Of a stretch of DNA of 64,000 nt, positions 22,014 to 64,000 are shown in pieces. The notes beneath the pieces are model-generated. The model had not been told where the DNA came from. It ran no database searches and saw only the letters and a program-made list of their open reading frames with translations. The translations under genes and the position numbers were made by a program. The stretch spans positions 96,843-160,842 of the forward strand of contig CAYMSV010000002.1 of assembly GCA_964393205.1 (NCBI GenBank), read 5' to 3'. The stretch is from an uncultured Pseudomonadales bacterium (GTDB lineage Bacteria > Patescibacteriota > Microgenomatia > UBA1400 > PJMF01). Every line of letters begins with the position of its first letter. The stretch's first letter is position 1.

Positions 22014-23213
22014 CTACTTGTTAATTCTTTTTAAAGATAAAACCTTATTACTAGCCCGATCAACCTGATTTTGAAAATCAAGTGAATCTTCGTATTTTTT
22101 CTCCAAATTATTTAACAACGAAGGTAATTGCTCATAATCAAAACCCAGGCCAAAAAGTAAAACATGATTGCCAGCTTCAATGGCGCTGATAGCAATTTCT
22201 GAAAGACTTCGTGTTTCACTAGTACCAGGTAAATAACTTGCTGAATCCATCAATAAATCATCACTAATCACTAGAGTTTCTGGATAAAACTGGAAAAGTT
22301 GGTCCAAACATTGCTTGCTTAGTGAACAAGGCTGACCAGCCAACTTGTCTCGTAAACGCAAATGAGCAGACATCACTCCTAGATTGGGATATTGATCAAG
22401 TAATTTTTCAAAAATAAGAGTGTCGTTTTTGTCTAAATCAACCGTATCTGGAGTAATGTGTAAATCCTTTTGACTACTACCTATTCCAGGAAAATGCTTT
22501 AATACCGGCATAATTTGCCAATTAGAAAAAGCTTGGATATACTCTTTGGCAATTTGCACTATTTTGTCCGGATCATCACCTATTCTACTAGTCAAAATTG
22601 GGTGAGCATTTGGTGAATAATCGACTACTGGAGCTAAAACCAAATTAATTCCTACTTCAGACAATTCTTTGGCTGACTGATTGAGCAAACTATTGCGCTC
22701 CCTAGCATTTAACAAATTTGAATTTTGATTATCTTCCGAAATTCCAATGCTAGCTGTTAATTGACGCATACTAGGAAGAGTGGTAAATCCTTCTCCACTC
22801 AAACGCTGTACCAGTCCACCTTCATGATCAACAGCTATTAGAGGTAAAACTCCATCTTCCTCAAAAATTTCTAATAAACTATCTTGATATGCTTTCGCTG
22901 TATTAAAACTCACTTCTTCACCAAAATAAACAATAAATCCAGGTTGATATTCTTTTAATAGTTTTAGGGTTTCCTTATCTTCTATACCCATTTTGTTATC
23001 TAGCAATAATGGTAAGGCTAACATTTGACTAATTTTTTCTCTAGTAGATAAATCTTTAATAGAAGATAACTCAACTTCTTCTACAGATTCTTTGTCAAAT
23101 TCTTCCACCACTGGTTCAGGAAAATATTTTAGAAAAGGTTGTTGAAAATAATTGTAAGCCAGAAAAGAGGCTAAAAGAGTTAATAAAATAATTAAAACAT
23201 TACGCCATTTCAT
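22014..23213 (-). CDS. nagZ: Glycoside hydrolase family 3 beta-N-acetylhexosaminidase (NagZ-like)
   Basis: N-terminal TM/signal anchor. GH3 N-domain motifs are present: NLVLAPVVDY, and KHFPGIGSSQKDLH (KHFPGHG...DSH in NagZ). 399 aa. Confidence 0.75.
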   Translation of the reverse strand: MKWRNVLIILLTLLASFLAYNYFQQPFLKYFPEPVVEEFDKESVEEVELSSIKDLSTREKISQMLALPLLLDNKMGIEDKETLKLLKEYQPGFIVYFGEEVSFNTAKAYQDSLLEIFEEDGVLPLIAVDHEGGLVQRLSGEGFTTLPSMRQLTASIGISEDNQNSNLLNARERNSLLNQSAKELSEVGINLVLAPVVDYSPNAHPILTSRIGDDPDKIVQIAKEYIQAFSNWQIMPVLKHFPGIGSSQKDLHITPDTVDLDKNDTLIFEKLLDQYPNLGVMSAHLRLRDKLAGQPCSLSKQCLDQLFQFYPETLVISDDLLMDSASYLPGTSETRSLSEIAISAIEAGNHVLLFGLGFDYEQLPSLLNNLEKKYEDSLDFQNQVDRASNKVLSLKRINK

Positions 23214-23231
23214 AAAACTATTCTACTAGAA

Positions 23232-24251
23232 TTACTTATGATAGGCACTGGGGATTTTGGGAATAATTGCTTCGTATAGTAACTCAGCATATAACTCATG
23301 GACTAAAGCTGAAGGATGACCATCTTTTTTGGAAACAAGCAATGAACTATAGTTTCCTCGCTCATAATCATCTAAATGTTTTTCATATTTAGGTAGATCG
23401 ATTATTTTTTTAGAATCAATAATAGTTTTGTTTTCTAGTTCCAAAATTTCCCTAAAAAAATCTAAGCGCTCTTTTGCCCACACAAAATAACTTTCAGTTA
23501 ATAAGTAAATTGATTTTTCTGTTGGTAATTGCTTAATGCTTTCTTGTACAAAACATTCATTTATTGGATTTCCTAAAACAAAAGGATCAAAAAGTTCTTG
23601 ATTTTCAAGATAATCAACATCAGAATTACGCTCTATATTAGCTTCTTCTCTGGGAAAATTACTTTCACAGACTCTGATTATTGGCTCATCTTTTAGCTGC
23701 TCATAAGTAGAAATATGAGGAGCTAAGTCATTAACTACTAAAGCAAACACATAAAAATCAGGATTGTAAATTTTTTTGACTTGACGATAATCTAGTAAAT
23801 AATCAACAATAAAATCTCCACAGTTGGCTACAGTTATAACCCTCACATTAAAGTCCTTTTGAAGTTTTTTTTCCAAAATCTGGCTAAAAGTCTTTGGCCA
23901 ACGCACTCCTTGACCCCAAGTGTATGAATCACCAATGACTGCTATTGTAAATAAATGTTCGTCATTTAGGTGATTGGGTAATAAATCATCCACATTAGTG
24001 CCGTGACGTAATTGTCGATAATAAAGAGATCGTTCTCCAAAATCTTCATAAGAAACTGTGGACGGTTTATCTTTCTCAAAGACCCAATAACCATGATCCA
24101 CACTTTTATAATAGAAAAACCTATCAAAAAAATATTTTTCTGCCAAAAAATAAAAGAATAAGATACTAATGACCAATAACAAAAGAGAGACTAGTAATAG
24201 TATCGTTTTTTTATAAAATAAAGTTTGTTTCTTCTTCTTTTTTTGAGACAT
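23232..24251 (-). CDS. Membrane-anchored SGNH/GDSL-like hydrolase, paralog 1
   Basis: 339 aa with an N-terminal TM. It has a conserved FLAEKYFFDRFFYYKSVDHGYW box and a GDS block, AVIGDSYTWGQGV. It is a paralog of 24265-25317, 46012-47031 and 62844-end. Confidence 0.5.
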   Translation of the reverse strand: MSQKKKKKQTLFYKKTILLLVSLLLLVISILFFYFLAEKYFFDRFFYYKSVDHGYWVFEKDKPSTVSYEDFGERSLYYRQLRHGTNVDDLLPNHLNDEHLFTIAVIGDSYTWGQGVRWPKTFSQILEKKLQKDFNVRVITVANCGDFIVDYLLDYRQVKKIYNPDFYVFALVVNDLAPHISTYEQLKDEPIIRVCESNFPREEANIERNSDVDYLENQELFDPFVLGNPINECFVQESIKQLPTEKSIYLLTESYFVWAKERLDFFREILELENKTIIDSKKIIDLPKYEKHLDDYERGNYSSLLVSKKDGHPSALVHELYAELLYEAIIPKIPSAYHK

Positions 24252-24264
24252 TTTTTAATCAAAA

Positions 24265-25562: not shown

Positions 25563-26318
25563 ATGCTTTACAAAGATCTTCAACTAACTTTTATCTTGGG
25601 TAACTGGCAAACAGTTGTTGTTTTTTTCAAAAAAGCAATTAAAAAAAAGGAAGGCTTCGTTTGTTTACCCTGCTCTTTAAATGATTTAACTTACAAAGAA
25701 ATTGAACCCTACAGGTCTAATTATCAGTCTGTAGACTATTGTACTGCTGATGGGATGCCTCTTGTCATTTATTTTCAACATTTAAAAAAAATTGGAAAAC
25801 TTGACAGAATTTACGGCGCAGACCTAATGAAAAAAATCTTACAAGAGACTCAACAAGAAAATCATTTTTTTTGTGGCACAACACCAGAAACTCTTAAAAA
25901 ATTAGAGAAAAAGATTGTAGAATATTGCCCAGATATCAAATCTTTATCAACATATAGCCCTCCTTTTGCAGAAGTACAAATTTTTCAAGAAAAATTACTT
26001 GAAAAATTAAAAAAACAATCTACAAATATTTTATGGATCGGACTGTCTAGCCCCAAACAAATTATCTTAGCTTCCTACATTAAAAAAAATTTACCTAACT
26101 TAAAAATATTTTGCGTTGGAGCTGCTTTTGATTTTTTATCTGGTCAAAAAAAAAGAGCTCCAAAAATTTTGCAAAAATTGGCTTTAGAATGGCTATATAG
26201 ATTAATTCAAGAGCCAGTTCGCTTAAGTGAAAGATATCTTTATAGAATTCCGATTTTTCTATTAAAAAAATTTGGAAAATTATTAAAAAAATTATTATTC
26301 AAAAACACAGAAGTCTAA
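25563..26318 (+). CDS. WecB/TagA/CpsF family glycosyltransferase (GT26)
   Basis: 251 aa. Motifs: FFCGTTPETLKKLEKKI..., ILWIGLSSPKQIILAS and CVGAAFDFLSGQKKRAP...EWLYRLIQEP. This is typical of UDP-ManNAc(A) transferases. Confidence 0.8.
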   Translation: MLYKDLQLTFILGNWQTVVVFFKKAIKKKEGFVCLPCSLNDLTYKEIEPYRSNYQSVDYCTADGMPLVIYFQHLKKIGKLDRIYGADLMKKILQETQQENHFFCGTTPETLKKLEKKIVEYCPDIKSLSTYSPPFAEVQIFQEKLLEKLKKQSTNILWIGLSSPKQIILASYIKKNLPNLKIFCVGAAFDFLSGQKKRAPKILQKLALEWLYRLIQEPVRLSERYLYRIPIFLLKKFGKLLKKLLFKNTEV

Positions 26319-27934: not shown

Positions 27935-27951
27935 GAATAAAACAATATTAC

Positions 27952-29682
27952 TTATTTATATAAAATAAAATCCCCAATAACTAATATATCAATGCCCGTG
28001 CTATAAAAACAACGTAATGCATCTAAAGGCGTACAAGCTATTGGCTCACCTTTTACATTAAGTGAGGTGTTGATCAAAATTTCATGACCACTTAATTTAG
28101 CAAAGTCTTTGAGCAATTTATGAAAACGAGGATTAGTATTTTTATCTACAACTTGAGGACGTGCTGAACCATCAATGTGAGTAATTGCTGCAATATGTTT
28201 TTGCATTGATTTTTTCACTTGATAAGCAACAATCATGTATTTGCCTTCATCACCAATATTTTCAAAATAACGGCCCGCTTTCTCTTTTGTAACAGAAGGA
28301 CAAAAAGGTCTCCAAGCATCTCGATACTTTACTTGCTGATTAACCAAATCTGGCATTTCTGGATTTAGTGGATTAGCCAAAATAGATCGATTGCCTAGAG
28401 CCCGTGGACCTCCTTCCATTGCTCCTTGGAACCATGCGACAATTTTATTGCCAGCCAAAGCTTTAGCAGTCAATTGACTAATTTTCTCGAAAGGAAGTTT
28501 TTTGTATTTAACTTTTGCATTATCTAACAAATCTTTTATTTCTTGATCATTGTAACTTGGACCCAAATAAACACTTTCTAGAGCTTTTGAACGCTTAGAA
28601 CCAAGCTCTAAACTTGCTAACAAACCAGCACCAATAGCTGCGCCACCGTCATGACTAATTGGCTGCACAAATATTGACTTGAACAAAGCGCTTTCTTTAA
28701 TCCTACCATTCAGCTTAACATTTTGGGCCAAACCTCCAGCTAAACATAGATTGTTTAGATGATATCTTTCTTTCAAATAACTCAAATATTTAAGAACTGT
28801 TTCTTCTAAATGAAATTGTACTGTTCTGGCTAAATCACGATGTTCTTGGGTTATTTCTTCTTTTTTTAGGCGTTGCTCGCCAAACAACTCTATTAAACGA
28901 TCGCTAAAATCCTCATGATAATTATGTCGACCAAGAAGCAAATAGTCTCCTTTAACTTTTATTTGACCATTCTTTATTTCTAAAATATTTTGTATTTTTT
29001 TCAGTAAATCTGGCTGTACCTCTCCATAAGCAGCTAAACCCATTAAAAAGCCCGCTTCACTATAAGGCTGAAACCCTAAAAAAGCAGAAAAGGCTGCATA
29101 AAACCAACCCAAGGAATTAGGTAGTTCTGTTTTACTCAGTTCTTTTAAATTTTTTCCTTGTCCTTCATAAACACTAATTGTGCGTTCTTCACCACTACCA
29201 TCCATGACCAACACTAAAGACTTTTTAAAAGAAGATAAATAAAAAGCACTGGCCGCATGAGACAGGTGATGAGAAAAAAATCTAATCTTATCTTTAATGG
29301 GAGTCTTCTCAATTTGTTTTAAAGCTAAAGCCGTTTTATGTTTAATTAAAGCTGGCTTCCTAGATAAAATACTGAGTAGAAAAGAACTGGATTGATTCCC
29401 TCCCAACAAACTAGGCCAATATTTAAGAGTAGATTTTAAGGAAAACCAGGGTATAAACCACTGATACTTTTGATAGTCCCAACCTATGGCAATTTGGTCT
29501 ACATCAGCTAAATTCAATTTGGTTTTTTTTAAGCAAAACTCAACTGCTTTGATTGGAAAGAAACCATCTGCATTTTTAAAACGAATAAAGCGCTCTTCTT
29601 CAGCATAAACTATAAGCTCTCCATCAATAATAATTGCTGCTGCTGGGTTGTGTTCGAAAATTGATAAGCCTAAAATAATCAT
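27952..29682 (-). CDS. Carbamoyltransferase (NodU/CmcH family)
   Basis: 576 aa. The N-terminus MIILGLSIFEHNPAAAIIIDGELIVYAEEERFIRFK is the Carbam_trans_N ASKHA-like signature, and the C-terminal YrdC-like carbamoyltransferase domain is present. Confidence 0.85.
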   Translation of the reverse strand: MIILGLSIFEHNPAAAIIIDGELIVYAEEERFIRFKNADGFFPIKAVEFCLKKTKLNLADVDQIAIGWDYQKYQWFIPWFSLKSTLKYWPSLLGGNQSSSFLLSILSRKPALIKHKTALALKQIEKTPIKDKIRFFSHHLSHAASAFYLSSFKKSLVLVMDGSGEERTISVYEGQGKNLKELSKTELPNSLGWFYAAFSAFLGFQPYSEAGFLMGLAAYGEVQPDLLKKIQNILEIKNGQIKVKGDYLLLGRHNYHEDFSDRLIELFGEQRLKKEEITQEHRDLARTVQFHLEETVLKYLSYLKERYHLNNLCLAGGLAQNVKLNGRIKESALFKSIFVQPISHDGGAAIGAGLLASLELGSKRSKALESVYLGPSYNDQEIKDLLDNAKVKYKKLPFEKISQLTAKALAGNKIVAWFQGAMEGGPRALGNRSILANPLNPEMPDLVNQQVKYRDAWRPFCPSVTKEKAGRYFENIGDEGKYMIVAYQVKKSMQKHIAAITHIDGSARPQVVDKNTNPRFHKLLKDFAKLSGHEILINTSLNVKGEPIACTPLDALRCFYSTGIDILVIGDFILYK

Positions 29683-30464: not shown

Positions 30465-30494
30465 TTTTGACTTCTTTATGTTAACATAGAACCC

Positions 30495-32501
30495 ATGTGT
30501 GGCATATTTGGTTTTGTTAATAACAATCCTATCAATCTACCAAAACGTTCTTTAAAAAAAGAACTAGATAGACTATTTGTCTTGGCTCAATCTAGAGGCA
30601 AAGAAGCTGCTGGTTTAGCTTTAAATAATAAACAAAATATCGCTATTTATAAAGCTCCTCTACCTGCTAAACAACTAATCAAATTAAAAAGCTATCAAAA
30701 TTTTATTGATGAGCAACTAAAAAAAACAATTAATTCAGCTTTGGGACAAGCTAGGTTGGCTACACATGGCTTTCAAGCTAAAAATGACAATAATCAACCA
30801 ACAATAAGCCAAAACTTTGTTGCCGTCCATAATGGAATTATCACCAATCACCAAGAATTATGGTCTAAAAACCATAAAAAAAACTGTCCGGAATCAGACA
30901 CTCAAGTCTTGTTAGATTATTTACAGAAAACTTTTAATAAAAACAATGATTTTATATTCAGCTTACAAAATCTTTATCAAAATATCGAAGGTTCGGCCAG
31001 TCTCATTATAGCTAATAATTTTAATCAAGAAATTTGTATCAGCACTAATACTGGTTCCTTATACTGGATGAACATGCCTGATCTAGGAGCTTATTTTTTT
31101 GCTTCAGAATCATGGATGTTGAAAAATTTTATTAAAAAAGTATATCCAAACCATAATTCAAAAAAAATTAAAATCAAACAACTCAAACCTCAGAAAGCAA
31201 TTATTTTTACGGAAAATAAAAAGAAAAAGCGAATAATAAACTTAAATAAAAAAGTAAAAAATCCCAAACAACAAATAAAAAACAAAGTTGAGATTAGTAG
31301 AAAAATTATTGACAGCTCACCCAATGACATTCCAATGGATCACAGGCTTAATAATCTTTACTCAATTAACAATGATTTTAAAAAGATAAAGAAACATCAT
31401 TTTCCAACAGAAAAAATCAAAAAAATCCACCGCTGTAGTCGCTGTATTCTGCCATCCACTACTCCTTTTATCAGTTTTGATAAAAATGGAGTTTGCAATT
31501 ATTGTCATGACCACAAAAAAATCAGTTATAAAGGTATTAAAGAGCTTAGAAAAATAGTGGCTCCTTTTCGTAAAAAAAATGGTCAAGCAGATTGTTTAAT
31601 TGCCTTCAGTGGTGGAAGAGACAGCTCTTATGGCTTGCACTTTTTAAAAAAAGAATTGGGCATGAATCCCATAGCCTATACTTATGACTGGGGAATGGTT
31701 ACTGATATTGCCCGTCGCAATCAAGCTCGCATAGTCAGTAAGTTGGGAGTTGAACACATTATTATTTCGGCAGATATCACTCAAAAACGTCAACATATTC
31801 AAGAGCATATTAAGGCTTGGTTAAAAAAACCAGAATTGGGGATGGTTCCTCTCTTTATGGAGGGTGACAAACAATGTGAATTTTATGCAGACCAATTAAT
31901 GAAAAAATATGATCTGGAATTAATGTTTTTTTGCAGAGGTAATGAATTTGAAAAAGAAGAGTTTAAGGCTGGACATTGTGGAATTAGAGATGCTGATCCA
32001 GATGGAGTAATCCATCACCTATCTTTAAAAAATAAAATCAGAATAGCTGCTTACTATTTGAGTCAATATATCAAAAATCCGGCCTACATTAATATTTCAC
32101 TGCTAGATACCATGTTGGCGTTCTTTGCCACCTATATTCAAAAACACCAATATCTCTTTCTCTGGCATTACGTTCCTTGGAATGAACAGCAAATTATTAA
32201 AACTTTAAAAAATGAATATAACTGGGAAAGTAGCGACGAAACTCTTAGTACTTGGCGTACAGATGATGGCAGTTCAGCTTTTTATAACTATATTTATTAC
32301 ACTGTTCAAGGTTTTACTGAGAACGACTCTTTTAGATCAAGACAAATCAGAGAAAAATTGATTGATCGTTCCACAGCACTTGAATTAGTTAATGAAGAAA
32401 ATGCTCCAAGATATAAAGCACTTAAATGGTATTTTGATCAGGTAGGACTAGATGGACATAAGGTTTTAACTCAAGTGGATCGAATCAGTAAATTTTATTA
32501 A
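30495..32501 (+). CDS. Glutamine amidotransferase (class II, Ntn) fused to PP-loop N-acetyl-sugar amidotransferase (WbuX/WbpG/PseA-like)
   Basis: 668 aa. N-terminal MCGIFGF carries the class II GATase catalytic Cys2. There is a Cys-rich zinc-ribbon-like segment, CSRCILPSTTPFISFDKNGVCNYC. The PP-loop SGGRDSS lies in the C-terminal half. Confidence 0.65.
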   Translation: MCGIFGFVNNNPINLPKRSLKKELDRLFVLAQSRGKEAAGLALNNKQNIAIYKAPLPAKQLIKLKSYQNFIDEQLKKTINSALGQARLATHGFQAKNDNNQPTISQNFVAVHNGIITNHQELWSKNHKKNCPESDTQVLLDYLQKTFNKNNDFIFSLQNLYQNIEGSASLIIANNFNQEICISTNTGSLYWMNMPDLGAYFFASESWMLKNFIKKVYPNHNSKKIKIKQLKPQKAIIFTENKKKKRIINLNKKVKNPKQQIKNKVEISRKIIDSSPNDIPMDHRLNNLYSINNDFKKIKKHHFPTEKIKKIHRCSRCILPSTTPFISFDKNGVCNYCHDHKKISYKGIKELRKIVAPFRKKNGQADCLIAFSGGRDSSYGLHFLKKELGMNPIAYTYDWGMVTDIARRNQARIVSKLGVEHIIISADITQKRQHIQEHIKAWLKKPELGMVPLFMEGDKQCEFYADQLMKKYDLELMFFCRGNEFEKEEFKAGHCGIRDADPDGVIHHLSLKNKIRIAAYYLSQYIKNPAYINISLLDTMLAFFATYIQKHQYLFLWHYVPWNEQQIIKTLKNEYNWESSDETLSTWRTDDGSSAFYNYIYYTVQGFTENDSFRSRQIREKLIDRSTALELVNEENAPRYKALKWYFDQVGLDGHKVLTQVDRISKFY

Positions 32502-38214: not shown

Positions 38215-38219
38215 AATTA

Positions 38220-47031: not shown

Positions 47032-47194
47032 TATAAATATTAAAGCTTTTGTAGATCGAGATCTATCTCACAAAAAAATGATAAAGTAAAAAAGCATCTT
47101 AAACAAGAATAAAACTTAAATTTAAGATCTATTATTTACAAGATATTTTTATTTTTGTCGGTAAAATTAGCTAACTAAAAAACTTATACAAATA

Positions 47195-48950: not shown

Positions 48951-50102
48951 CTATTTGTAAGCAACTGGCAAATCTGTCTGAACAATGGATAAACTCATTC
49001 GACGTTGTTCTGGAACTACATTTTCTACATTAACTGTCACTTCATCACCAACTTTGAGCTCTTTACTTGGATCAAGTTTGGTAGAGTGAATTAAGCCATC
49101 AACGCCTTTTTCCACGTTAACAAAAACACCAAATGGTTCGATACGAGTAACCTTACCAGTAAAGGTGGTACCAGCCGCATAACGTGACTCTAAAGTGGTC
49201 CAGGGGTCTTCTTCTAACTGTTTAATAGATAAATTTAATTTATTGGTTCTCTCATCAATACCTAGCACCTTAACTTTAATTCTGTCACCAACCTTATGAT
49301 AATCTCTGGGATGATTAACCTTTTCCCATGAAATTTCAGAAATATGAATTAAACCTTCAATATAACCAGTACTATCCTTATCATCCTCATCTTTAACTGG
49401 TACTTCTACCGTAACAAATAAGCCAAAATGCATAACTCCGGAAACTACTCCCTCGTAAATCTCACCCTCCTTAACACTTTCGACTGCCAAATCTTTTTGA
49501 GCTAGTTCTTTGGCTTCACTCACATGTCGTTCAGAGAAAATCAAACGATTTTTCTCTCGATCAACTTCAATTGCCTTAACCTTAAATGTTTCTCCTTTAA
49601 GAGAGGCAATTTTACCCATATATTGACGCCCAAATTGACTAGAAGGTACAAAACCTCTTACCCCATTAACCAAAACAATTAATCCACCACGATTTAACTC
49701 TACTCCTTTAGCTTCTATGCTCAAGTCCTTATCAAGCGCTTCCTCAAAATATTCCCATTTAGCATCAGAAGCTGCTCCTTTCAGGGATAAGAGCACTTGA
49801 CCATTTTCATAATCAGTAGAAACGACAATTGCTTTAATTTCATCACCAACTTTTAAATCATCAATAAAGTCGCTAGCAAATTCGAATTCTTTGTCAGCTA
49901 CATAAGCTTCTGTTTTAGATCCTAAATCAATAACTAAATTTTTCTTATTTTTTTCAACGATAACACCAGTTATTGTGTCCCCTTTGTGAGGGACAACTAA
50001 TTTATCAGCATTAGCTTTTAAAAGCTCCTCCATGTTCATTTTTTTTGTACTCTTAGCCATATCAAAATAGTTCCTTTCTTTTTGATCTGTGTATTGTAAC
50101 AC
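48951..50102 (-). CDS. rpsA: 30S ribosomal protein S1 (four S1 domains)
   Basis: 383 aa containing repeated S1 OB-fold units (GDTITGVIVE..., GDEIKAIVV..., GEIYEGVVSGVMHFGLFV..., GTTFTGKVTRIEPFGVFV...). Confidence 0.85.
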   Translation of the reverse strand: MLQYTDQKERNYFDMAKSTKKMNMEELLKANADKLVVPHKGDTITGVIVEKNKKNLVIDLGSKTEAYVADKEFEFASDFIDDLKVGDEIKAIVVSTDYENGQVLLSLKGAASDAKWEYFEEALDKDLSIEAKGVELNRGGLIVLVNGVRGFVPSSQFGRQYMGKIASLKGETFKVKAIEVDREKNRLIFSERHVSEAKELAQKDLAVESVKEGEIYEGVVSGVMHFGLFVTVEVPVKDEDDKDSTGYIEGLIHISEISWEKVNHPRDYHKVGDRIKVKVLGIDERTNKLNLSIKQLEEDPWTTLESRYAAGTTFTGKVTRIEPFGVFVNVEKGVDGLIHSTKLDPSKELKVGDEVTVNVENVVPEQRRMSLSIVQTDLPVAYK

Positions 50103-51702: not shown

Positions 51703-51869
51703 AAATTAATTTTATTATTATATATCCATTCTAAAACATTTGTTCGTTGGGCACTCAAACTTCGAACGGCTATAGCTTAAAATAAAACAATTTTATTGAC
51801 AAGCCTCATAAATAATTAAGTAACAATTGTAATTCAATTAGCAAATGAGACTGCTTTGATTATTATTTT

Positions 51870-53576
51870 TTATTTTAACTTGCTTTGTTTTTTTATTAAA
51901 AATATAACCTCTGGCGAATAATTTTCATTTTGATCTACAAAATAATAAGAGCTAAGAGTTAAAAATAAGTGCCTATTGTGCACATCTATATTTTTTAAGT
52001 TAAATAAAACTTCTTGTAAACATGCTTCTGATTCTTGAATAATTAATTCTGTTTCATAATTTCCCGAATCACAAATCAAAAAATAATAATCAATATTATT
52101 CAAAAAATGAGTGTGATCTGAAAGAAAACGGATAAATAGATTATAATTTTCTACAGACCGTTCTTCATTAAAGCTCGATTTATTTATAAAAAAATCGTTA
52201 GATTGAGCTATATGTCTTAATAATCTTAAATAATTTAAGGAATTATTGGCGTCATAAGTAAATGTATCTTCTCCAAAGTTTGCCTTGTTTAAAACCATTG
52301 TTCTGCTTCTTTCTAAATTTTTTGTGACAATCTCATCAGCAATTAAGTTAGAAACTTTCTCATAAGAATAAATGGTTCCCGAAGACCACTTGTCAGATTT
52401 AAAAATAAGAAAAGAGTTTCGAATATTTATATAAAAATAAATAGATAAAAAAATAATAACAGGTAACAGTAAACAAATTTTTAGAAAGCTGTTTGCTTTG
52501 AAACTTAAAATAAGCTCTAAACCTATGGCCAATAAAATAAAAAACAAGAAAAACAGAACATCAAGTCTGTGAAAGTCTTGAGCTCCTGCTATATTCAATA
52601 GATAAACAATGGCTAAAATCCACAAATATAAAAAGGGATTAATATAAATTTTAGTTAAAAAATTAAGTCTTTTTTTATAAAAAACTAACAAACTGAACAA
52701 AAAAAACAAAAATAAAAAAAATAATAAATGAAGTTGTGGGGAAACATCCCAAGAAAAGAAAACTTGAGATAAAATTTTAGAAATGTTGAAAAAAGTTTCA
52801 ACTATTATTTCAGAATTAATGCTTACATTATCTCGAAAAATTCCTAATACAGAAGAAAGCCGTGAGAAAAAACCAAAATTTATCTCGTTGACCAATAAGG
52901 GAAGATAAACTAATAGTATAAATACTGAGTTACTCAATAAAATATAAATTAAACTTTTTATCTTGGAATAAGCTTCAATTCTGTTAAAAAAAACATATGA
53001 ATAATATAAAACTATTGGTAAAACAAAGATCGGAGAAGGATAAATTGATAAAGATATAAAAAATAAAAATTGTCCTAAGAATAAGTATGGTTTTTTCTTC
53101 ATTCTTAAAGATAAAGTTAGAAACAAAAACGATAGTGATAAAAAAAACAATACAGGGTGAGGATGCCAAATCATTCTGCTAACATGAATAAAATAGTGAC
53201 TAATTGAAAAAATTGCAATAAATAAAACAGCAATGCCTTTATTTTTGCTTAAAATATAAACTAAAAAAGAAAAAATAATAACAGTCAAGAAACCCATTAA
53301 AGCAAATAACGCAGAAATAATTTTTATTTCGCCTCCAGCAATAAAATATAAGAATGCTATTAGGTAAAGGTAGGTCGGTGGAATCACAACATCTACCAAC
53401 TCTAAAGTTGGACCCAAAAGGGGTAACTTTTTAAATTGATTAATTTGCCTGGCTTTCTCTAATTCATATCCTGAATCACCATACAAAGTATTGGCTTGCA
53501 GATTATAAAATCTTAAATATGCAGCTAATATTATAAAAAATAAGACAAGTAAAAATATAAATTTATTTCTTTTCAT
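51870..53576 (-). CDS. GT-C fold glycosyltransferase (PMT/ArnT family-like), paralog B
   Basis: 568 aa; N-terminal ~150 aa are highly similar to 47195-48817. Confidence 0.5.
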   Translation of the reverse strand: MKRNKFIFLLVLFFIILAAYLRFYNLQANTLYGDSGYELEKARQINQFKKLPLLGPTLELVDVVIPPTYLYLIAFLYFIAGGEIKIISALFALMGFLTVIIFSFLVYILSKNKGIAVLFIAIFSISHYFIHVSRMIWHPHPVLFFLSLSFLFLTLSLRMKKKPYLFLGQFLFFISLSIYPSPIFVLPIVLYYSYVFFNRIEAYSKIKSLIYILLSNSVFILLVYLPLLVNEINFGFFSRLSSVLGIFRDNVSINSEIIVETFFNISKILSQVFFSWDVSPQLHLLFFLFLFFLFSLLVFYKKRLNFLTKIYINPFLYLWILAIVYLLNIAGAQDFHRLDVLFFLFFILLAIGLELILSFKANSFLKICLLLPVIIFLSIYFYINIRNSFLIFKSDKWSSGTIYSYEKVSNLIADEIVTKNLERSRTMVLNKANFGEDTFTYDANNSLNYLRLLRHIAQSNDFFINKSSFNEERSVENYNLFIRFLSDHTHFLNNIDYYFLICDSGNYETELIIQESEACLQEVLFNLKNIDVHNRHLFLTLSSYYFVDQNENYSPEVIFLIKKQSKLK

Positions 53577-53738
53577 CTAAAAAAACAAAAAAATAATAAA
53601 GGCTAATTAATAGTATCACCCTCCAGTTGAAAACAATACTAACACTTATATTAACCAGCAACTTATAAAAAAATTAAAACCACATTTATTAACTATTTGT
53701 GTATTTGTGTATTATAGTTACAATGAGAAAATATCATT

Positions 53739-54986: not shown

Positions 54987-54988
54987 TA

Positions 54989-55834: not shown

Positions 55835-55839
55835 TTTAT

Positions 55840-56802
55840 TTATACTTTTATCAATGCTTTTTTCAATCTTTGACGAATTGTATACCACAAATTAAACATA
55901 TAGATTGTCTTATCCTCAACACCAGCCTCTTTAAAAGAGTTTCTTCTATCAACACAGGTGGCACAAGCATCACCACATTGAAATAGCTTATGTTGATAAC
56001 AAGACCAAGTTTTTTCAAAAGGAACCTTTAAATGTTTACCTAGCTTAATTGTTTCTTTTTTATCTAACATAAGCCCCATTTCCCTTTCCAAAAAAACTGA
56101 TGAAAAATTCCAATCATATTCAGCTTTAGCGCCACAAATGGACAATAAGGTTGTTCTAAGCGAAGTAAAGGATTGGCTAGGAATCACAAAACCGTCAGAA
56201 AAATTTATACCTGTATATATATCTTTAATGTTAATGCCCTTGGTATATTTTAAATAATCAGCATAAAACACTGCATAAAAAGACATTAAATAAGGTGAGA
56301 TTCCATTAGCTCTAGTAATTACAACGTTAGATTGATTATTAACCATCTTATTGTTTTGGTTGAAATTATTTAGTAAATCATTGGCAGTGAGAAGTTTTTC
56401 ATTACTTAAGTCTAAAACTTCTTTTGGAGTAGGATTAACATGTAAATGAAAAGGTTTTATGTAATTCTCTGGATATTTTGCTGAAAAATGTTTTTCTAAA
56501 TTTTTAACGGCTCTCAACTCTCTCTTAGCTCTTTTCTTTAATCCTCTATCAATAATTAAAGGATAAACTTGATAATTATATATATCCAATAAAGCAGCCC
56601 AAGCTACGGTCGAATCTATCCCTCCAGAAAGCAATAAAATAACTTTTGTTTTAGCTTTTGGTTTGCGAAATACATAACCCCTTTTTTTGATAAAAAAATT
56701 ATCAACAGCGTCAATTAAATCCAAATCTTCTACTTTTCTTTCTTTAAGCAAATTATCAAACCTTGATTTTGAAATTTTAGGCAAATATTTCTTTTTTCTC
56801 AT
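55840..56802 (-). CDS. QueC-like (ExsB family) PP-loop ATPase, extended
   Basis: 320 aa. The PP-loop is VILLLSGGIDSTVAWAAL. The C-terminal segment WSCYQHKLFQCGDACATCVDRRNSFKEAGVEDKT matches the QueC Zn-binding tail (CY...CG.C..C..R..GF..AG..D). There is an extra ~50 aa N-terminal basic extension. Confidence 0.55.
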   Translation of the reverse strand: MRKKKYLPKISKSRFDNLLKERKVEDLDLIDAVDNFFIKKRGYVFRKPKAKTKVILLLSGGIDSTVAWAALLDIYNYQVYPLIIDRGLKKRAKRELRAVKNLEKHFSAKYPENYIKPFHLHVNPTPKEVLDLSNEKLLTANDLLNNFNQNNKMVNNQSNVVITRANGISPYLMSFYAVFYADYLKYTKGINIKDIYTGINFSDGFVIPSQSFTSLRTTLLSICGAKAEYDWNFSSVFLEREMGLMLDKKETIKLGKHLKVPFEKTWSCYQHKLFQCGDACATCVDRRNSFKEAGVEDKTIYMFNLWYTIRQRLKKALIKV

Positions 56803-56911
56803 CGGCTTTCATCTTAATCTAAAGACTCCTGCTTTTCAAGAAAAAAGAAACATCATAACGATCGTTGACAACTCCTAATAATTGAGTCTAGAATAATAAA
56901 GAGATAAAAAT

Positions 56912-56989
56912 ATGAAAAAATATACAAAACCAAGCCTGAAAAAAAGCAAAATCAAGATAAACTTTGCTTTTACTATTGTCAAAACATAA
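56912..56989 (+). CDS. Small ORF (25 aa), candidate precursor/leader peptide
   Basis: ATG at 56912 with AAAGAG 8 nt upstream. It translates to MKKYTKPSLKKSKIKINFAFTIVKT* and ends 22 nt before the PqqD-like gene on the same strand. It is not in the ORF track. Confidence 0.25.
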   Translation: MKKYTKPSLKKSKIKINFAFTIVKT

Positions 56990-57011
56990 ATTAGAAAATT
57001 TATAATCCTTT

Positions 57012-57320
57012 ATGTTTAATTCTGAAAAACTGTTTTCTAGTTTTGTTTTTTGTCGCTCAAGTGTTAATTTTAGCAAAAAAAAAGATACTTTCTTAGTTTT
57101 ATCTCAAGACCGCAAACACATTCTGGAACTTAAAGATGTATCTTTTAGTATTTGGCAAAATTTAGAAAAACCAATCTCTTTTTCTGCATTGATAAAGAAA
57201 CTCCAAAAGGAGTATGACGTGGCAGAAGAAGTTTTAGAAAAAGATTTAAAATCTTGGTTAAAAGAAGCTTTAAAAGAAAAGATTATTAAAAAAGTAAAAT
57301 TAAACAACCTTAATCATTAA
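57012..57320 (+). CDS. PqqD-like protein (RiPP recognition element family)
   Basis: 102 aa. The stretch FLVLSQDRKHILELKDVSFSIWQNLEKPISFSALIKKLQKEYDVAEEVLEKDLKSWLKEALKEKII follows the PqqD pattern (l.l.....g..y.LN.tg..iW.ll.g..t..ei...l...Y.v......Dv..fl..L...gli). Confidence 0.55.
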   Translation: MFNSEKLFSSFVFCRSSVNFSKKKDTFLVLSQDRKHILELKDVSFSIWQNLEKPISFSALIKKLQKEYDVAEEVLEKDLKSWLKEALKEKIIKKVKLNNLNH

Positions 57321-58343: not shown

Positions 58344-58346
58344 TTA

Positions 58347-59141
58347 CTATAACCAATCATCTACTTTTTTACTTTGTTTTCTAAAAAAATCTAGAGAAAA
58401 AACTAAAAATAATATAGAAAATAAGCCATTTATCAAATATTCCTGAAAACTCATGCCTAAATCTAAAAATATCGAGCGAAACATTTCAATGAACTGAAAT
58501 AAAGGGTTTAAAGACAAGATTCCAGCTAAATTGTTAGGAAGTAAGTCGCGAGCATAAAAAATTGGTACCATAAAAAAAGATAGTTGAATAATAAAATCTA
58601 TTACCACCATAAACTTTTTAACTCTTGCAACTAAAATTGAAAAAAACAGAGCTACAGCTAGAGAAAAAAAGGCTAAAAAAATTGATAAAACACTAAATAA
58701 AAAAAAGGATTTAATAAAATAAGCAAAAGCCACTCCAAAATTAACAGAAGAAAAACTTACAAAAAGCAATATTAATAAACTAGTAATAAAATAAGGAATA
58801 AAACTTACTATCAAAGTTTTTATCAATAAAAGTTCTCTAGGAAAAACCGCTTTTTTAATAAGATTTTGTTCATCAACTAAAATTATTGCAGAACTCTTAA
58901 TAAATTTGGCAAAAAAACTCCAGGAGATTAATCCTGATAATATAAATAAAAAATAATTATTATCTTTAGAAACAAGCATAAAAGATAAAATGAAAGAAAG
59001 AATAAATGCTTTAATAATAGGAGTGCTAATTTCCCATACTAAGCTCAAAAAACTCCTTTTACTACTCACGTTCAAATCTTTTTTTGTCATCAGAAGCAAA
59101 AAATCTAAGTATGGAAATTTTTCTTTATATTCTTGAGTCAT
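58347..59141 (-). CDS. ABC-2 type transporter permease (Wzm-like), partner of the Wzt-peptidase fusion
   Basis: 264 aa with six TM helices. It lies 3 nt upstream of the ATPase gene on the same strand. Confidence 0.7.
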   Translation of the reverse strand: MTQEYKEKFPYLDFLLLMTKKDLNVSSKRSFLSLVWEISTPIIKAFILSFILSFMLVSKDNNYFLFILSGLISWSFFAKFIKSSAIILVDEQNLIKKAVFPRELLLIKTLIVSFIPYFITSLLILLFVSFSSVNFGVAFAYFIKSFFLFSVLSIFLAFFSLAVALFFSILVARVKKFMVVIDFIIQLSFFMVPIFYARDLLPNNLAGILSLNPLFQFIEMFRSIFLDLGMSFQEYLINGLFSILFLVFSLDFFRKQSKKVDDWL

Positions 59142-60614: not shown

Positions 60615-60624
60615 TTTTGATATT

Positions 60625-62796: not shown

Positions 62797-62843
62797 AAAT
62801 GACTTGTTAGTTATAACTTATTTTATTATAGTTATAGAGTTTA

Positions 62844-64000
62844 ATGAAAATCAAAAATAAAAAAACTTTTAACATCCTTATCTTTTTCATAACTTTCAGT
62901 TTGCAGATTCTACTTATTGCTAGCCTGCTACTAAACTACCTTGTTTTCAACAACACTCTTTCTCAAAATAAAAGTTGGCAAACTACCAAAAATGACTTGT
63001 TTAATCCAGCTTCTGATGGCACAGTTTTTGCTGATCAAACTCAATCACTAGCTACAAATTCACTAAACCTATCCGCTTGGAGAGCTTGGAATGAGGTTTA
63101 TCTGAAAGACATCTTTTCTTGGAAAACATTGTCTTTAATGTTTCTTCCAAATGAAAACTCTTACATTTACGTGATATTTAATAGAACTGAAGAAAATTTT
63201 TCAGCAATCAGGATTAGTTATTCCCCATTTTTTGACAATGCCTTAATAAGTGCTAAATATACTGGAGAGTTTACTAAAATTACGCCTATTTCAATACCAA
63301 ATTTAAATAGTTCTGGATGGCAACAATTATTATTGAAAAAAGACAGTGAGGATGACCAAACTATTGAATTTTGGTATAACGAACAACTCATAGCTAAACA
63401 AACCTTCTCTGAATCTCCTAAAGGAAATGTTGCCTTCAGAGCAGGCAAAGAGCAAATGTTGATTGACAATATTGAAATCAGAAATAACCAGGATCAAATT
63501 ATTTTCAGCGAAAATTTTGATCAATTAGATAAATTTTGGCCTAAATTCTTTTTTCTAATAACAGTAATTATTCTCCTCGATTTAATCATCTGTTTGTTAG
63601 TGAAAAATAGAGAAAAAAAGATTAAACCATTTATTCAAAAAAACTTCAGTTTATGTTTGGTATTTATTTTAATTAATCTAGTTTTTCTATTGTTAAATAA
63701 TCACATAAGAAGTCGTTATCCTCGAGATGATTCTTTTATTAAAAAAATTAGATTTAACGACCGAAAACAAACTAAAATTAATCATGCTGAAAGTAGTCAG
63801 CTTTTAAATAAACATTCAGTAGAATTCGATCAAACAAATATCACTAGAATTATGTTTATTGGTTCTTCTCAAACTAAAGGAGAAGGGAGTAGTTTAGAGG
63901 GTGAAGATTTTGTTTCTCAATTTGCTAGTTTAGTAAAAAAACACAATAAAAATGATGAAAAGAAGTTTGAAGTTATTAATGCTAGTATAGCTGGTTTCCC
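62844..64000 (+). CDS. Membrane protein with N-terminal beta-sandwich-like ectodomain and C-terminal SGNH/GDSL-like hydrolase domain (partial, continues past window end)
   Basis: ATG at 62844 (MKIKNKKTFNILIFFITFSLQILLIASLL...). There is an internal TM (FFFLITVIILLDLIICLLV), then ITRIMFIGSSQTKGEGSS, a GDS-like block with Ser nucleophile. No stop occurs before the window end, so it is absent from the ORF track. Confidence 0.45.
   Translation, partial: MKIKNKKTFNILIFFITFSLQILLIASLLLNYLVFNNTLSQNKSWQTTKNDLFNPASDGTVFADQTQSLATNSLNLSAWRAWNEVYLKDIFSWKTLSLMFLPNENSYIYVIFNRTEENFSAIRISYSPFFDNALISAKYTGEFTKITPISIPNLNSSGWQQLLLKKDSEDDQTIEFWYNEQLIAKQTFSESPKGNVAFRAGKEQMLIDNIEIRNNQDQIIFSENFDQLDKFWPKFFFLITVIILLDLIICLLVKNREKKIKPFIQKNFSLCLVFILINLVFLLLNNHIRSRYPRDDSFIKKIRFNDRKQTKINHAESSQLLNKHSVEFDQTNITRIMFIGSSQTKGEGSSLEGEDFVSQFASLVKKHNKNDEKKFEVINASIAGF

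Follow-up and report, generated by a model that had tools for sequence, protein, structure and literature searches.

A mosaic surface-glycan region and a putative peptide cassette with a peptidase-fused Wzt ATPase in a Candidatus Woesebacteria-like genome

The window described here is a stretch of 64,000 nucleotides (64 kb) from contig CAYMSV010000002.1, with a GC content of about 30%. A preliminary description had read the part from 22 kb to the window end as one surface-glycan locus of about 40 kb, interrupted only by rpsA and pgk. The reading favoured here, with moderate confidence, is that this part is a mosaic, in which three blocks of glycan genes interrupt a conserved backbone and the second of two exporter pairs, the permease Wzm2 and the ATPase Wzt2, is the transport arm of a conserved peptide cassette. 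Judged from homology, this cassette comprises a precursor peptide, a recognition element for ribosomally synthesised peptides that are modified after translation (RiPPs) like that of lasso B1 proteins, a QueC-like enzyme, a methyltransferase and a pyridoxal-phosphate (PLP) decarboxylase. Its Wzt2 ATPase carries a signal peptidase domain.

Backbone and inserted blocks

Every open reading frame (ORF) of at least 100 amino acids (aa) from 22 kb to the window end was scanned with Pfam and NCBIfam, and paralogy was assessed by all-against-all BLASTP. For synteny, a scan anchored on rpsA, with one genome per species, supplied nine loci (L001-L009). It placed the window in Candidatus Woesebacteria/Microgenomates, within the candidate phyla radiation (CPR). 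The best locus, L001, belongs to a Woesebacteria metagenome-assembled genome from a sludge digester and has an RpsA 93% identical to that of the window; in L002-L009 the identity is 57-77%.

The backbone genes within the region are the following.

22014..23213, minus strand: glycoside hydrolase family 3 (GH3, NagZ-like) glycosidase with an N-terminal transmembrane (TM) segment; Pfam Glyco_hydro_3, 112 bits
44643-45047, minus strand: backbone gene without assigned function, 134 aa, recognised by synteny
45093-45782, minus strand: backbone gene without assigned function, 229 aa, recognised by synteny
48951..50102, minus strand: rpsA, with four S1 domains; Pfam S1, 160 bits
59301..60614, plus strand: pgk; Pfam PGK, 395 bits
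60625..62796, minus strand: Wzy_C protein of 723 aa, part of the backbone and not of an island; Pfam Wzy_C, 46.1 bits

With genes named by their first coordinate, the order common to L001-L004 is Wzy_C (60625)-pgk-rpsA-45093-44643-GH3 (22014)-21503-20982-20186-T4CP (17821), where T4CP is a gene for a type IV coupling protein-like ATPase. Between this gene and GH3 the backbone consists of three small genes, the orthologs of 20186, 20982 and 21503. In the same four loci rpsA and pgk lie 45-285 bp apart and GH3 lies 11-67 bp from the 44643 ortholog, with no island genes in either interval. Both the 44643 and the 45093 orthologs sit between rpsA and GH3 there; no Pfam domain matched the product of either gene in the window. 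The 229-aa gene adjoins rpsA also in L005-L009, and hence across all nine loci, and pgk is directly beside rpsA in L001-L005. An ortholog of the Wzy_C gene 60625 adjoins pgk in L001 (51% identical), L002 and L003, and the genes of island B are missing between rpsA and the 45093 ortholog of L001.

Set against this backbone, the window contains three blocks: A at 23232-44622 (21.4 kb), B at 46012-48817, and C at 50174-59141 (9 kb). The single locus of the preliminary description thus gives way to three lineage-specific insertions into a housekeeping backbone. Nor are rpsA and pgk its only interruptions, since two further conserved genes (44643-45047 and 45093-45782) lie inside it and the segment at 53.7-59.1 kb is a RiPP-like peptide cassette.

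The GC content of the blocks is 0.25-0.30 against 0.34 for the backbone, and the GC content at third codon positions (GC3) is 0.23 in both. Because GC3 is the same, the deficit of the blocks reflects amino-acid composition and not foreign codon usage. No direct repeats were found flanking islands A-C, where the repeats present are the paralogous genes themselves. No integrase or transposase family occurred among the Pfam hits of the window ORFs from 22 kb to the end, and the sole tRNA gene of the window is located outside the islands. A single horizontally acquired island is ruled out by the three insertion sites, the backbone-like GC3 and the lack of flanking repeats and mobility genes. The pattern looks like one in which glycan blocks are exchanged rapidly at fixed backbone sites among compositionally similar relatives. 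Neither the islands nor their turnover is out of the ordinary for a region of surface-polysaccharide genes.

A side observation concerns the coupling ATPase of the backbone, a protein of 779 aa resembling type IV secretion system coupling proteins (TrwB/TraG/HerA-like; 17821-20160, minus strand). With an identity of 91% in L001 and of 77-79% in L002-L004, it is one of the best conserved genes of the neighbourhood, comparable to RpsA. This is unusual for a conjugation-type gene, and the protein may have a core secretion or uptake function in the clade.

The peptide cassette and the two exporter pairs

The preliminary description had reported two Wzm/Wzt pairs, and both were confirmed by ABC2_membrane and ABC_tran matches above the cut-offs. 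They occupy the two ends of island C, and the second belongs to the cassette.

50174-50905, minus strand: Wzt1, ATPase domain only, at the left end of island C; Pfam ABC_tran (PF00005), above cut-off
50896-51702, minus strand: Wzm1, ABC-2 permease, island C; Pfam ABC2_membrane (PF01061), above cut-off
53739-54986, plus strand: group II PLP-dependent amino-acid decarboxylase; Pfam/NCBIfam
54989-55834, plus strand: Methyltransf_24 methyltransferase; Pfam
55840..56802, minus strand: QueC-like PP-loop ATPase; Pfam QueC, 69 bits
56865..56894, plus strand: sigma-70-like promoter TTGACA-18-TAGAAT before the small ORF; 11 of 12 consensus positions matched
56912..56989, plus strand: candidate precursor peptide MKKYTKPSLKKSKIKINFAFTIVKT, an unannotated ORF of 25 aa with a YxKPxL leader motif
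57012..57320, plus strand: PqqD-family RiPP recognition element (RRE) of the lasso-B1 type; Pfam PqqD, 43 bits
57300..58343, minus strand: Wzt2, TagH/Wzt-type ATPase fused to a signal peptidase I (SpI) domain, 347 aa; Pfam, NCBIfam
58347..59141, minus strand: Wzm2, ABC-2 permease and partner of Wzt2, at the right end of island C; Pfam ABC2_membrane, 45.7 bits

Wzt2 consists of two parts. Residues 1-235 form an ATPase that matches TagH in NCBIfam with E~1e-51, compared with 4e-28 for DrrA (both below the equivalog cut-offs). When the model of the whole protein was searched with Foldseek, the top matches were TarH, TagH and the Wzt of A. aeolicus, with 41-43% identity to the A. aeolicus ATPase domain. 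The ATPase domain dominated this search, and nothing was gained from it on the peptidase domain. Residues from about 245 to 347 form an SpI domain of the endoplasmic reticulum (ER)/archaeal type that lacks a TM segment and has Ser269, His309 and Asp324 as its catalytic residues. Over residues 258-344 it scores 63.7 bits with TIGR02228, above the curated cut-off of 51.85, and a profile of the peptidase-domain family compared with the PDB found SEC11A with E=7e-11 and human SEC11A/C with E~1e-10. Since no TM segment lies between the ATPase and the peptidase, the peptidase domain would be cytoplasmic.

The fusion is not an assembly artefact, because about 30 clusters (at the 90% identity level) share the Wzt2 architecture over its full length, with 45-66% identity to Wzt2. 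In an alignment of 24 full-length members (43-66% identical), S269, M270, P272, H309, R310, G323 and D324 are invariant; together they make up the Ser, His and Asp boxes known from signal peptidases of the ER type. Searched alone against 1.84 billion representatives, the peptidase domain found 1460 relatives. The top 150 of these included 13 further ATPase fusions and two family members known from the earlier search, and many were standalone proteins of 105-170 aa without a TM segment. Besides Wzt2 of the window, at least 15 representative clusters (at the 50% identity level) have the peptidase fused to the ATPase. A carbohydrate-binding C-terminal domain is present on neither ATPase of the window: Wzt1 ends after its ATPase domain, and Wzt2 continues into the SpI homolog.

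The two pairs are paralogous, with 47% identity between the ATPases and 31% between the permeases. Wzt1 is matched by the NCBIfam models for TagH (E=4e-51) and for galactan Wzt (E=2e-48), with scores under the equivalog cut-off of each, and judged by its families the Wzm1/Wzt1 pair is an ordinary exporter of the TagGH/Wzm-Wzt type. Eight other cassette loci have a readable permease, and each has one Wzm beside the fusion. These permeases are 35-76% identical to Wzm1 of the window and 28-39% identical to Wzm2. Because the single Wzm of other cassettes resembles Wzm1, the window pairs look like the result of a duplication in which one ATPase is without the peptidase domain. The sequence comparison makes a duplication more likely than two independent polymer pathways. 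The step from two exporters to more than one polymer, one of the options in the preliminary description, therefore does not hold, given that the second pair lies in a peptide cassette and that other cassettes have a single Wzm. The permease beside the fusion in the window, Wzm2, diverges from the other cassette permeases; partner swapping or accelerated divergence after the duplication may be considered.

The small ORF at 56912-56989 stops 22 nucleotides ahead of the PqqD start codon. Homologous ORFs are present in all 12 other cassette loci with readable flanks, either beside the PqqD gene or elsewhere within the cassette. This amounts to 14 ORFs over 13 loci (L081 has two), of which 13 are 22-30 aa long and one, in L110, has 70 aa. 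The ORF of L085, MKKSYVKPESQ…, was missed by the first regular expression and caught by a looser scan. All 14 have a Lys-rich N-terminus with Y-x-x-P; the form is Y-x-K-P in 12, with Y-K-K-P and Y-K-E-P in the other two, and a Leu follows two residues past the Pro in 11. Conservation fades at about +16 from the Tyr, and the C-terminus is variable.

Several observations indicate that these ORFs code for protein. Pairwise differences at codon positions 1, 2 and 3 number 480, 481 and 750 (13 ORFs, 16 codons from the Tyr). Synonymous codons are spread widely, such that the Tyr is encoded by TAT or TAC, the Pro by three codons and the motif Leu by six. The peptide also occurs in three loci with 42-45% GC, and short frames contain the motif at a background rate of about 3 in 64 kb. 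The TTGACA box stands at the same place in L081, L084 and L086 (four ORFs in all have it), and sequences like a Shine-Dalgarno (SD) site precede most of the ORFs, with no obvious one in three type-2 loci. The ORF is thus conserved and coding, and is a candidate precursor peptide.

The adjoining PqqD-family protein fits this role. A profile built from 11 cassettes and compared with the PDB was nearest to the lasso protein TbiB1 (E=9e-13), followed by two further lasso PqqD chaperones and TfuB1, with PqqD itself at 1e-4. Lasso B1 RREs bind a leader motif of the form YxxPxL (PMC10368454).

Where the leader would be cut can be estimated from a second family. Linear polyphosphorylated peptide (LPP) RiPPs of Bacillota are made from a precursor, LppA, with an RRE, LppB, and a SipW-like peptidase, LppS (PMC13381572, 2026). 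LppS lacks a TM segment, has the residues S29/H68/D93, and cleaves its YxxP-type leader only when LppB presents it; the Tyr of this leader occupies position -16 and its Pro position -13 (PMC13381572). Applied to the 14 peptides of the cassette loci, this spacing places Ala at -1 in seven, Val in four, Ile in two and Asn in one. The lasso spacing, with Tyr at -17, was rejected because it gives discordant residues at -1 (F, Y, E, R…). The LPP spacing, which has experimental support in its own family, was adopted by analogy, as its -1 residues would suit a signal peptidase. The predicted released fragments are 2-7 residues long: FTIVKT in the window and FAASK, FAETKR, AVEMN, YVE, EVE, VAE, RSE and AD elsewhere. 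An exception to such short cores is L110, where a Cys-rich core of 47 residues is adjoined by radical SAM/SPASM enzymes.

The QueC-like protein has an SGGIDS motif and a C-terminal cluster of four Cys. Its score with the NCBIfam model TIGR00364 is 49.8 bits against a cut-off of 150.3, so that it is QueC-like without being QueC. Within the window and the related loci, a place for the gene in queuosine synthesis is unsupported, given that the score is far below the equivalog cut-off and that the gene is in each case part of the PqqD/peptidase cassette.

The set Wzm, Wzt-peptidase, PqqD, QueC-like and Methyltransf_24 recurs in L081-L088, L090-L093 and L112, in some cases together with a decarboxylase. 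A QueC-like gene is in every cassette examined, and a Methyltransf_24 gene in each cassette with enough flanking sequence. Orthologs of the decarboxylase and methyltransferase of the window occur in the cassettes of L081, L086, L090, L110 and L113. The decarboxylase varies, being of the group II PLP type in several cassettes and of the Orn/DAP/Arg type in L085. The cassette of L113 has in addition a gene of the spermine-synthase family. In L110 and L113 the cassette partners accompany standalone peptidase homologs that lack a TM segment. How widely the cassette is spread among taxa was judged only by sequence similarity and GC content.

Glycan genes are a frequent company of the cassette. Members of the DUF4330, ~470-515-aa Wzy_C, GT4/GT2 (glycosyltransferase families 4 and 2) and beta-propeller/DUF5060 families flank it in L082, L085, L086, L091, L112 and L113. 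These are the families of the right end of island A in the window (38220-44622), where backbone genes and island B separate them from the cassette. No earlier account of the cassette was found in the literature searched, on PqqD with QueC and, for Patescibacteria, on RiPPs with PqqD and on O-antigen ligases with glycosylation. A cassette with a peptidase-fused Wzt pump, a QueC-like enzyme and predicted cores of 2-7 residues thus appears to be a new combination.

Some of the other loci have further features. In L081, L082, L084 and L086 (1-6000), the cassette lies just downstream of an operon for the mevalonate pathway (HMG-CoA synthase, thiolase, GHMP kinases and diphosphomevalonate decarboxylase) followed by a conserved ORF of about 135 aa; a supply of polyprenyl carrier is a possible role of this operon. 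Beside the cassette, L081 (14778-20357) and L084 (13299-20823) contain genes for a DHQ-synthase-like protein, a type I dehydroquinase, a DAHP/KDO8P-synthase-family protein, an AMP-binding enzyme and a GT2 enzyme, and L084 also has a GFO/IDH/MocA oxidoreductase. The DHQ-synthase-like set could be a pathway for a cyclitol or an ulosonic-acid sugar. The pair of PqqD and QueC-like genes occurs twice in L081 (7755-9081 and 11058-12539), with two precursor subtypes, MKKQLKKYVKPELKKNKVKINFAFAASK and MKKYIKPRLKKVILKALLARSE. L110 (333-12339) encodes a standalone peptidase homolog of 112 aa, PqqD, a PLP decarboxylase, a QueC-like protein, two Methyltransf_24 proteins, two radical SAM enzymes (one with SPASM), a UbiA-family protein of 549 aa and a glycosyltransferase of the RGP family. 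Its 70-aa precursor has a core rich in Cys, Gly and Asp (…TCDGWGDCGDLIMCNGQGDN…) and is a larger-core relative of the cassette peptides.

The glycan genes and their surroundings

The remaining genes of the islands, together with an incomplete ORF at the window edge, are the following.

23232-24251, minus strand: membrane-anchored SGNH/GDSL-like protein, first of two tandem paralogs at the left end of island A; sub-threshold Pfam Lipase_GDSL
24265-25317, minus strand: second of these tandem paralogs; sub-threshold Pfam Lipase_GDSL
25563..26318, plus strand: WecG/TagA/CpsF-family (GT26) glycosyltransferase; Pfam 151 bits, NCBIfam TIGR00696 124 bits
26315..27934, minus strand: polytopic membrane protein (9-11 TM segments), possible GT-C enzyme, uncertain; GT87 E=0.017
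27952..29682, minus strand: NodU/CmcH-type O-carbamoyltransferase; Carbam_trans_N 211 bits, Carbam_trans_C 225 bits
29679..30464, minus strand: polysaccharide deacetylase of carbohydrate esterase family 4 (CE4); Pfam Polysacc_deac_1 29.6 bits, above cut-off
30495..32501, plus strand: class-II glutamine amidotransferase fused to a WbuX-like PP-loop N-acetyl-sugar amidotransferase; GATase_7, TIGR03573
32498..34852, minus strand: Wzy_C (O-antigen ligase/polymerase-like) protein of 784 aa with a long C-terminal extension; Pfam Wzy_C 70 bits
34852-36003, plus strand: GT4 enzyme; Pfam
35963-37087, minus strand: radical SAM enzyme; Pfam, no equivalog model matched
37075-38214, minus strand: GT4 enzyme; Pfam
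38220-39059, minus strand: DUF4330 protein; Pfam
39031-40578, minus strand: Wzy_C protein of 515 aa; Pfam Wzy_C 50.5 bits
40559-41725, plus strand: GT4-like enzyme; Pfam
41722-44622, plus strand: secreted protein of 966 aa with beta-propeller, DUF5060 and weak GH-A-like parts, right end of island A; Pfam, weak GH5/GH1
46012-47031, minus strand: third SGNH-like paralog, island B; motifs and BLASTP paralogy
47195-48817, minus strand: GT-C paralog a, island B; 37% identical to 51870-53576 (BLASTP)
51870..53576, minus strand: GT-C paralog b, GT-C fold with a C-terminal soluble domain, 568 aa; AlphaFold2 (AF2) model, Foldseek
62844..64000, plus strand: incomplete ORF at the window edge, 385 aa so far, three TM segments; translation

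Three O-antigen-ligase/Wzy-like proteins had been predicted, and all three score above the Pfam PF04932 gathering score of 31.7 and have 8-12 predicted TM segments, although membership of the Wzy_C family does not tell a ligase, a polymerase and a protein O-transferase apart. The large proteins at 32498-34852 and 60625-62796 are paralogs. In both, the Wzy_C domain is followed on its C-terminal side by an extension of about 300 aa without a domain match, and their homology reaches through part of this extension (27% identity over residues 130-667).

The prediction of three GT-C proteins held in part. The protein at 51870-53576 had neither a Pfam nor a PDB sequence match, and its family is rare, with 14 homologs of which one is annotated PMT_2. 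Because PDB sequence searches for the GT-C candidates were empty, its structure was predicted. An AF2 model built on 12 homologs (pLDDT 80, pTM 0.82) found only GT-C enzymes in Foldseek, namely STT3, ALG12, ArnT, Pmt4 and PglB, with a probability of 1.0 and a TM-score of about 0.45-0.5. D34 and E38, in the first extracytoplasmic loop, are nearly invariant in the alignment of its homologs (A3). On this model the protein has a GT-C fold, and the protein at 47195-48817 can be assigned to the same fold by homology. The third candidate, at 26315-27934, stays uncertain. It has just 7 homologs, none with a Pfam domain, and no match in a PDB sequence search; comparison with the GT-C family by hhalign gave an in-register match with a probability of 49% and E=1.7e-4. 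D43 and D50, in its first extracytoplasmic loop, are invariant in the alignment of its homologs (A6).

Likewise, the five SGNH/GDSL-like hydrolases of the preliminary description are reduced to three paralogs and one ORF with a motif only, and a fifth was not found among the ORFs scanned. The paralogs (23232, 24265 and 46012) share G107-D108-S109, G145-D146 and H312 without exception. SGNH Pfam scores are sub-threshold, at 26.8 (cut-off 32.9), 23.5 and 20.8 (23.6), and 18 (32.9). The edge ORF at 62844-64000 carries the motif IMFIGSSQTKGEG, a possible SGNH block I, and has no Pfam or NCBIfam match. As a separate observation, the three paralogs have a strongly conserved motif, FLAEKYFFDKxFYxKSxxHGY, which lies just after the TM anchor and outside the SGNH fold, and which forms the longest DNA repeat family of the region (D1).

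Enzyme families for decoration by carbamoyl, amidino, (de)acetyl and methyl groups are present, as had been proposed. In the protein at 30495, residues 313-639 match the WbuX model TIGR03573 with E=4e-40 and 138 bits, below the cut-off of 203.2, and the Pfam GATase domains pass their cut-offs; the WbuX-like assignment holds at the family level only, and acetamidino formation would be its predicted reaction. The WecG/TagA-type enzyme at 25563 probably acts on a lipid-linked primer of the GlcNAc type. The membrane proteins kept to glycan-related types (GT-C, Wzy_C and ABC-2), with no general reassignment to other functions.

Taken together, the blocks would encode a glycan pathway that is dependent on an ABC transporter and linked to a polyprenyl carrier, as suits a cell with a single membrane. 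In this pathway the WecG/TagA-type transferase and the GT4 enzymes would assemble the glycan in the cytoplasm, and the sugars would be carbamoylated, deacetylated, given acetamidino groups and acted on by the radical SAM enzyme. A pump of the TagGH/Wzm-Wzt type would carry out the export. Outside the membrane, the GT-C transferases, the Wzy_C ligase/polymerase-like proteins, the SGNH esterases and the beta-propeller/GH-like protein would act on the product.

Envelope genes continue to the left of 22 kb, so the left boundary of the locus at this point is arbitrary. They include a class A penicillin-binding protein (PBP1a; 1180-3546), a GH18 protein (3567-4793) and MurJ (8555-10243), with PilO and PilN at 7286-8514. 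Also in this part are a purple-acid-phosphatase/Ig-like protein (4839-6746) and a weak HEPN RNase-LS-like ORF (568-1086). The Rfam and tRNA scans found a bacterial 23S-5S rRNA pair with tRNA-Ala(TGC) at 14278-17685 on the minus strand; these were the only Rfam matches, with no riboswitch in the region. No 16S gene is adjacent upstream of the pair, where the next gene is the coupling-protein-like ORF, which makes this rRNA operon an unlinked one. The population of the window was assembled on at least 24 contigs.

Proposed mechanism, rival readings and meaning

The proposal starts from features present in the sequences themselves: the gene families, the fusion, the invariant catalytic residues, the conserved coding peptide, the RRE homology and the co-occurrences. 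Binding, cleavage site, chemistry and cargo would, by analogy with known systems, be as follows. The RRE would bind the YxKPxL leader and offer it to the signal-peptidase domain at the C-terminus of Wzt2. This domain would cut the leader away on the cytoplasmic side, where the pump opens, by analogy with LppB/LppS and with the C39 domain found in peptidase-containing ABC transporters (PCATs). The QueC-like enzyme would form an amide at the carboxylate or N-terminus of the short C-terminal fragment, by ATP-dependent activation of a carboxylate. The decarboxylase would supply the amine, and the methyltransferase would methylate the product. With the LPP spacing (Tyr at -16), FTIVKT would be the fragment that is tailored, and the product would leave through Wzm2/Wzt2. 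A functional tie between the cargo and the glycan is probable, because the pump belongs to the glycopolymer class and in other genomes the same glycan genes accompany the cassette; a glycosylated peptide and a peptide-decorated glycan are candidates. An earlier guess at protein or peptide glycosylation has a real counterpart in the peptide cassette, whose link to the glycan is a prediction from context. In L110, L081 and L084 the module is also present without the company of these glycan genes.

The closest known system is the LPP family, with which the cassette has the module of RRE, SpI and YxxP leader in common. In both, an SpI homolog of the archaeal/ER type without a TM segment and with Ser, His and Asp stands with a discrete PqqD-type RRE. 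Both also have a conserved N-terminal YxxP leader, a variable C-terminus, and a setting in polysaccharide loci rich in glycosyltransferases. LPP clusters sit in capsule loci, where their role is not known, and according to their authors SpI-like peptidases had not been seen earlier in RiPP pathways (PMC13381572). LPP clusters differ in their HprK-like kinase, NTP transferase and MsbA-like exporter, in place of which the cassette has a QueC-like ATPase, Methyltransf_24, a decarboxylase of the PLP (or Orn/Arg) type and an ABC-2 pump of the Wzm/Wzt kind, whose ATPase is fused to the peptidase. The precursors are 22-30 aa long compared with 35-200 aa in LPP, the leader continues as LKKxKVKI instead of VLxHQxIxFET, and the host is CPR/Patescibacteria-like instead of Bacillota. 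Because none of the families that define LPP were among the Pfam hits of the cassette or the related loci, the cassette is not a member of the LPP family.

A similar layout is found in lasso peptide clusters, which also combine an RRE (TbiB1 being nearest), a YxxPxL leader motif, a leader protease, an ATP-dependent PP-loop enzyme that activates a carboxylate, and an ABC exporter. The protease of the cassette is a serine signal-peptidase homolog, whereas lasso B2 is a transglutaminase-like Cys protease; the PP-loop enzyme is QueC-like, whereas the lasso cyclase is asparagine-synthetase-like. With far too few residues and no Asp/Glu at position 7-9, the predicted cores could not take up a lasso fold. 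A lasso peptide cluster was therefore rejected, the cassette having no B2 protease or cyclase and too short a core. The AsnB-like protein at 30495 lies 25 kb from the cassette and matches the WbuX sugar amidotransferase.

Leader cleavage on the cytoplasmic side may be coupled to export, as in PCATs, where a leader peptidase is likewise fused to an exporter. In PCATs it is an N-terminal C39 cysteine peptidase on the half-transporter of a type I exporter, while in the cassette it is a serine peptidase of the S26 type at the C-terminus of the ATPase, itself a separate subunit of an ABC-2 (type V) exporter, and a separate RRE would be required. QueC-family enzymes have been reported or proposed to modify protein N-termini (PMC13279940). 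Cap9 of the type IV cyclic-oligonucleotide-based antiphage signalling system (CBASS) and QatC of QatABCD are, like the enzyme of the cassette, QueC-like PP-loop ATPases outside queuosine synthesis with a specific protein or peptide partner. The cassette protein is weakly similar to both (NCBIfam QatC 29 bits, Cap9 E=0.015), but TGT-like, QatA, QatB and QatD partners are missing and the context is not one of defence.

On the glycan side, both pairs resemble Wzm/Wzt and TagGH/TarGH in having an ABC-2 permease beside an ATPase nearest to TagH, TarH and Wzt. Wzt2 has an extra C-terminal domain, as do the Wzt proteins of A. aeolicus and E. coli O9a; the domain is a peptidase with intact catalytic residues and not a carbohydrate-binding jelly-roll, and Wzt1 has none. 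A CPR host is presumed to lack an outer membrane and lipopolysaccharide. Loci for O-glycosylation of S-layers in Gram-positive bacteria, such as slg of Geobacillus, combine Wzm/Wzt with a Wzy_C-type transferase, WsaB. The window is like them in having Wzm/Wzt export, cytoplasmic glycosyltransferases and a Wzy_C-family enzyme in a single-membrane cell. A Wzy_C protein in an slg-type role would move the exported glycan onto a protein or another acceptor. The window differs in lacking an S-layer gene, rml genes and an initiating transferase, and in having three Wzy_C paralogs and GT-C enzymes.

Other readings of the region have to be weighed. One keeps to a contiguous glycan locus of about 40 kb, with two exporters for two polymers or for one heavily decorated polymer, in which the C-terminal domain of Wzt2 would be a substrate-binding module and the PqqD and QueC-like genes accessories for sugar tailoring. 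Both ATPases are indeed of the TagH/Wzt type, the domain is placed like the carbohydrate-binding domain of A. aeolicus Wzt, glycan genes dominate the region, and PP-loop amidotransferases and methyltransferases are common in glycan tailoring. This reading is nevertheless quite improbable, as synteny shows three separate insertions around backbone genes, other cassette loci have a single Wzm/Wzt pair, the peptidase Ser, His and Asp are invariant in 24 members, which would not be required of a pure binding module, and the PqqD protein is an RRE of the lasso-B1 type with a conserved YxKPxL peptide gene in every cassette. Still less credible, and very improbable indeed, is that the small ORF arose by chance or is a regulatory upstream ORF, the peptidase domain being an inactive relic with no peptide substrate. 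The ORF is tiny and unannotated, AT-rich genomes yield many Lys-rich ORFs, and the three type-2 loci lack an obvious SD sequence. Yet the ORF is present in 13 of 13 loci, three of them with 42-45% GC, and its motif keeps its amino acids while the codons vary synonymously, with an excess of third-position changes. The motif background of about 3 per 64 kb in short frames and the invariant catalytic triad also speak against chance.

The segment at 53739-59141 may instead be a free-standing RiPP cluster for an antimicrobial or signalling oligopeptide, with no glycan involved, a glycan neighbourhood that is incidental, and Wzm2/Wzt2 as a PCAT-like peptide exporter recruited from the ABC-2 family. 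This is somewhat unlikely. An RRE, a leader peptidase, a precursor with conserved leader and variable core, and tailoring enzymes are the hallmarks of RiPP clusters; L110, with its 47-residue Cys-rich core and radical SAM/SPASM enzymes, has no ABC-2 pump or Wzy_C gene nearby; and LPP RiPPs in capsule loci are likewise without a known role. Against it, the ATPase is 41-43% identical to O-antigen Wzt and matches the TagH model far better than that of DrrA (E=1e-51 versus 4e-28), the set of DUF4330, Wzy_C, GT4 and beta-propeller genes accompanies the cassette in six loci that range from about 30% to 45% GC, and, at 2-7 residues, the predicted cores would be very small if the product were a bioactive RiPP. 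A bolder proposal, unlikely at present, is that the ribosomal peptide is both an export tag and a decoration for the glycan. The QueC-like enzyme would join the peptide to the lipid-linked glycan by an ATP-dependent amide, or the glycan would be built on the peptide. The RRE-bound leader would be recognised by the peptidase domain, positioned where other Wzt proteins carry their cap-binding carbohydrate module, and its cleavage would license export, so that a gene-encoded, hypervariable peptide of 2-7 residues stays on the surface polymer.

Several points weigh against the favoured reading, that of a mosaic with a peptide cassette served by Wzm2/Wzt2. Its functional claims rest on homology and gene context, all components being known from sequence alone. 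Insertion here, as opposed to loss in the relatives, was decided by parsimony over five to nine genomes. The predicted fragments are unusually small for a RiPP, their cleavage position is extrapolated from a different family, and the cores have no common residue class, so that a site for the QueC-like, methyltransferase or glycan chemistry is not assignable. The neighbours within 10 kb of the cassette in L081 and L084 are mevalonate genes and DHQS/DAHP-synthase-like genes and fall outside the DUF4330/Wzy_C set, which also favours a free-standing RiPP cluster. The glycan pathway is incomplete as read here, because the window contains no initiating phosphoglycosyltransferase, nucleotide-sugar genes or LCP ligase. 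Finally, the identities to Wzm1 (up to 76%) and Wzm2 (28-39%) do not settle the direction or timing of the Wzm/Wzt duplication.

Most CPR/Patescibacteria are uncultured and attached to hosts, and their surface is presumed to be the point of contact with hosts and phages. To our knowledge, almost nothing is known about their glycans. The window indicates that surface-glycan genes turn over at fixed backbone sites even between species with 93% RpsA identity. The cassette unites RiPP leader recognition by an RRE and a SipW-like peptidase, a pairing described for Bacillota in 2026, with Wzm/Wzt glycopolymer pumps, and its new elements are the fusion of the peptidase to the pump ATPase, the QueC-like tailoring enzyme and the predicted cores of 2-7 residues.

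If the peptide serves as an export tag, it would be a ribosomally templated glycan decoration and the peptide counterpart of the cap-recognition checkpoint of O-antigen ABC transporters. If it ends on, or primes, the exported glycan, the cassette would be a new way to encode surface diversity in genes. If it is not on the glycan, the cassette would still represent a new RiPP class with an unprecedented exporter, and would extend leader peptidases of the SpI type to another phylum.

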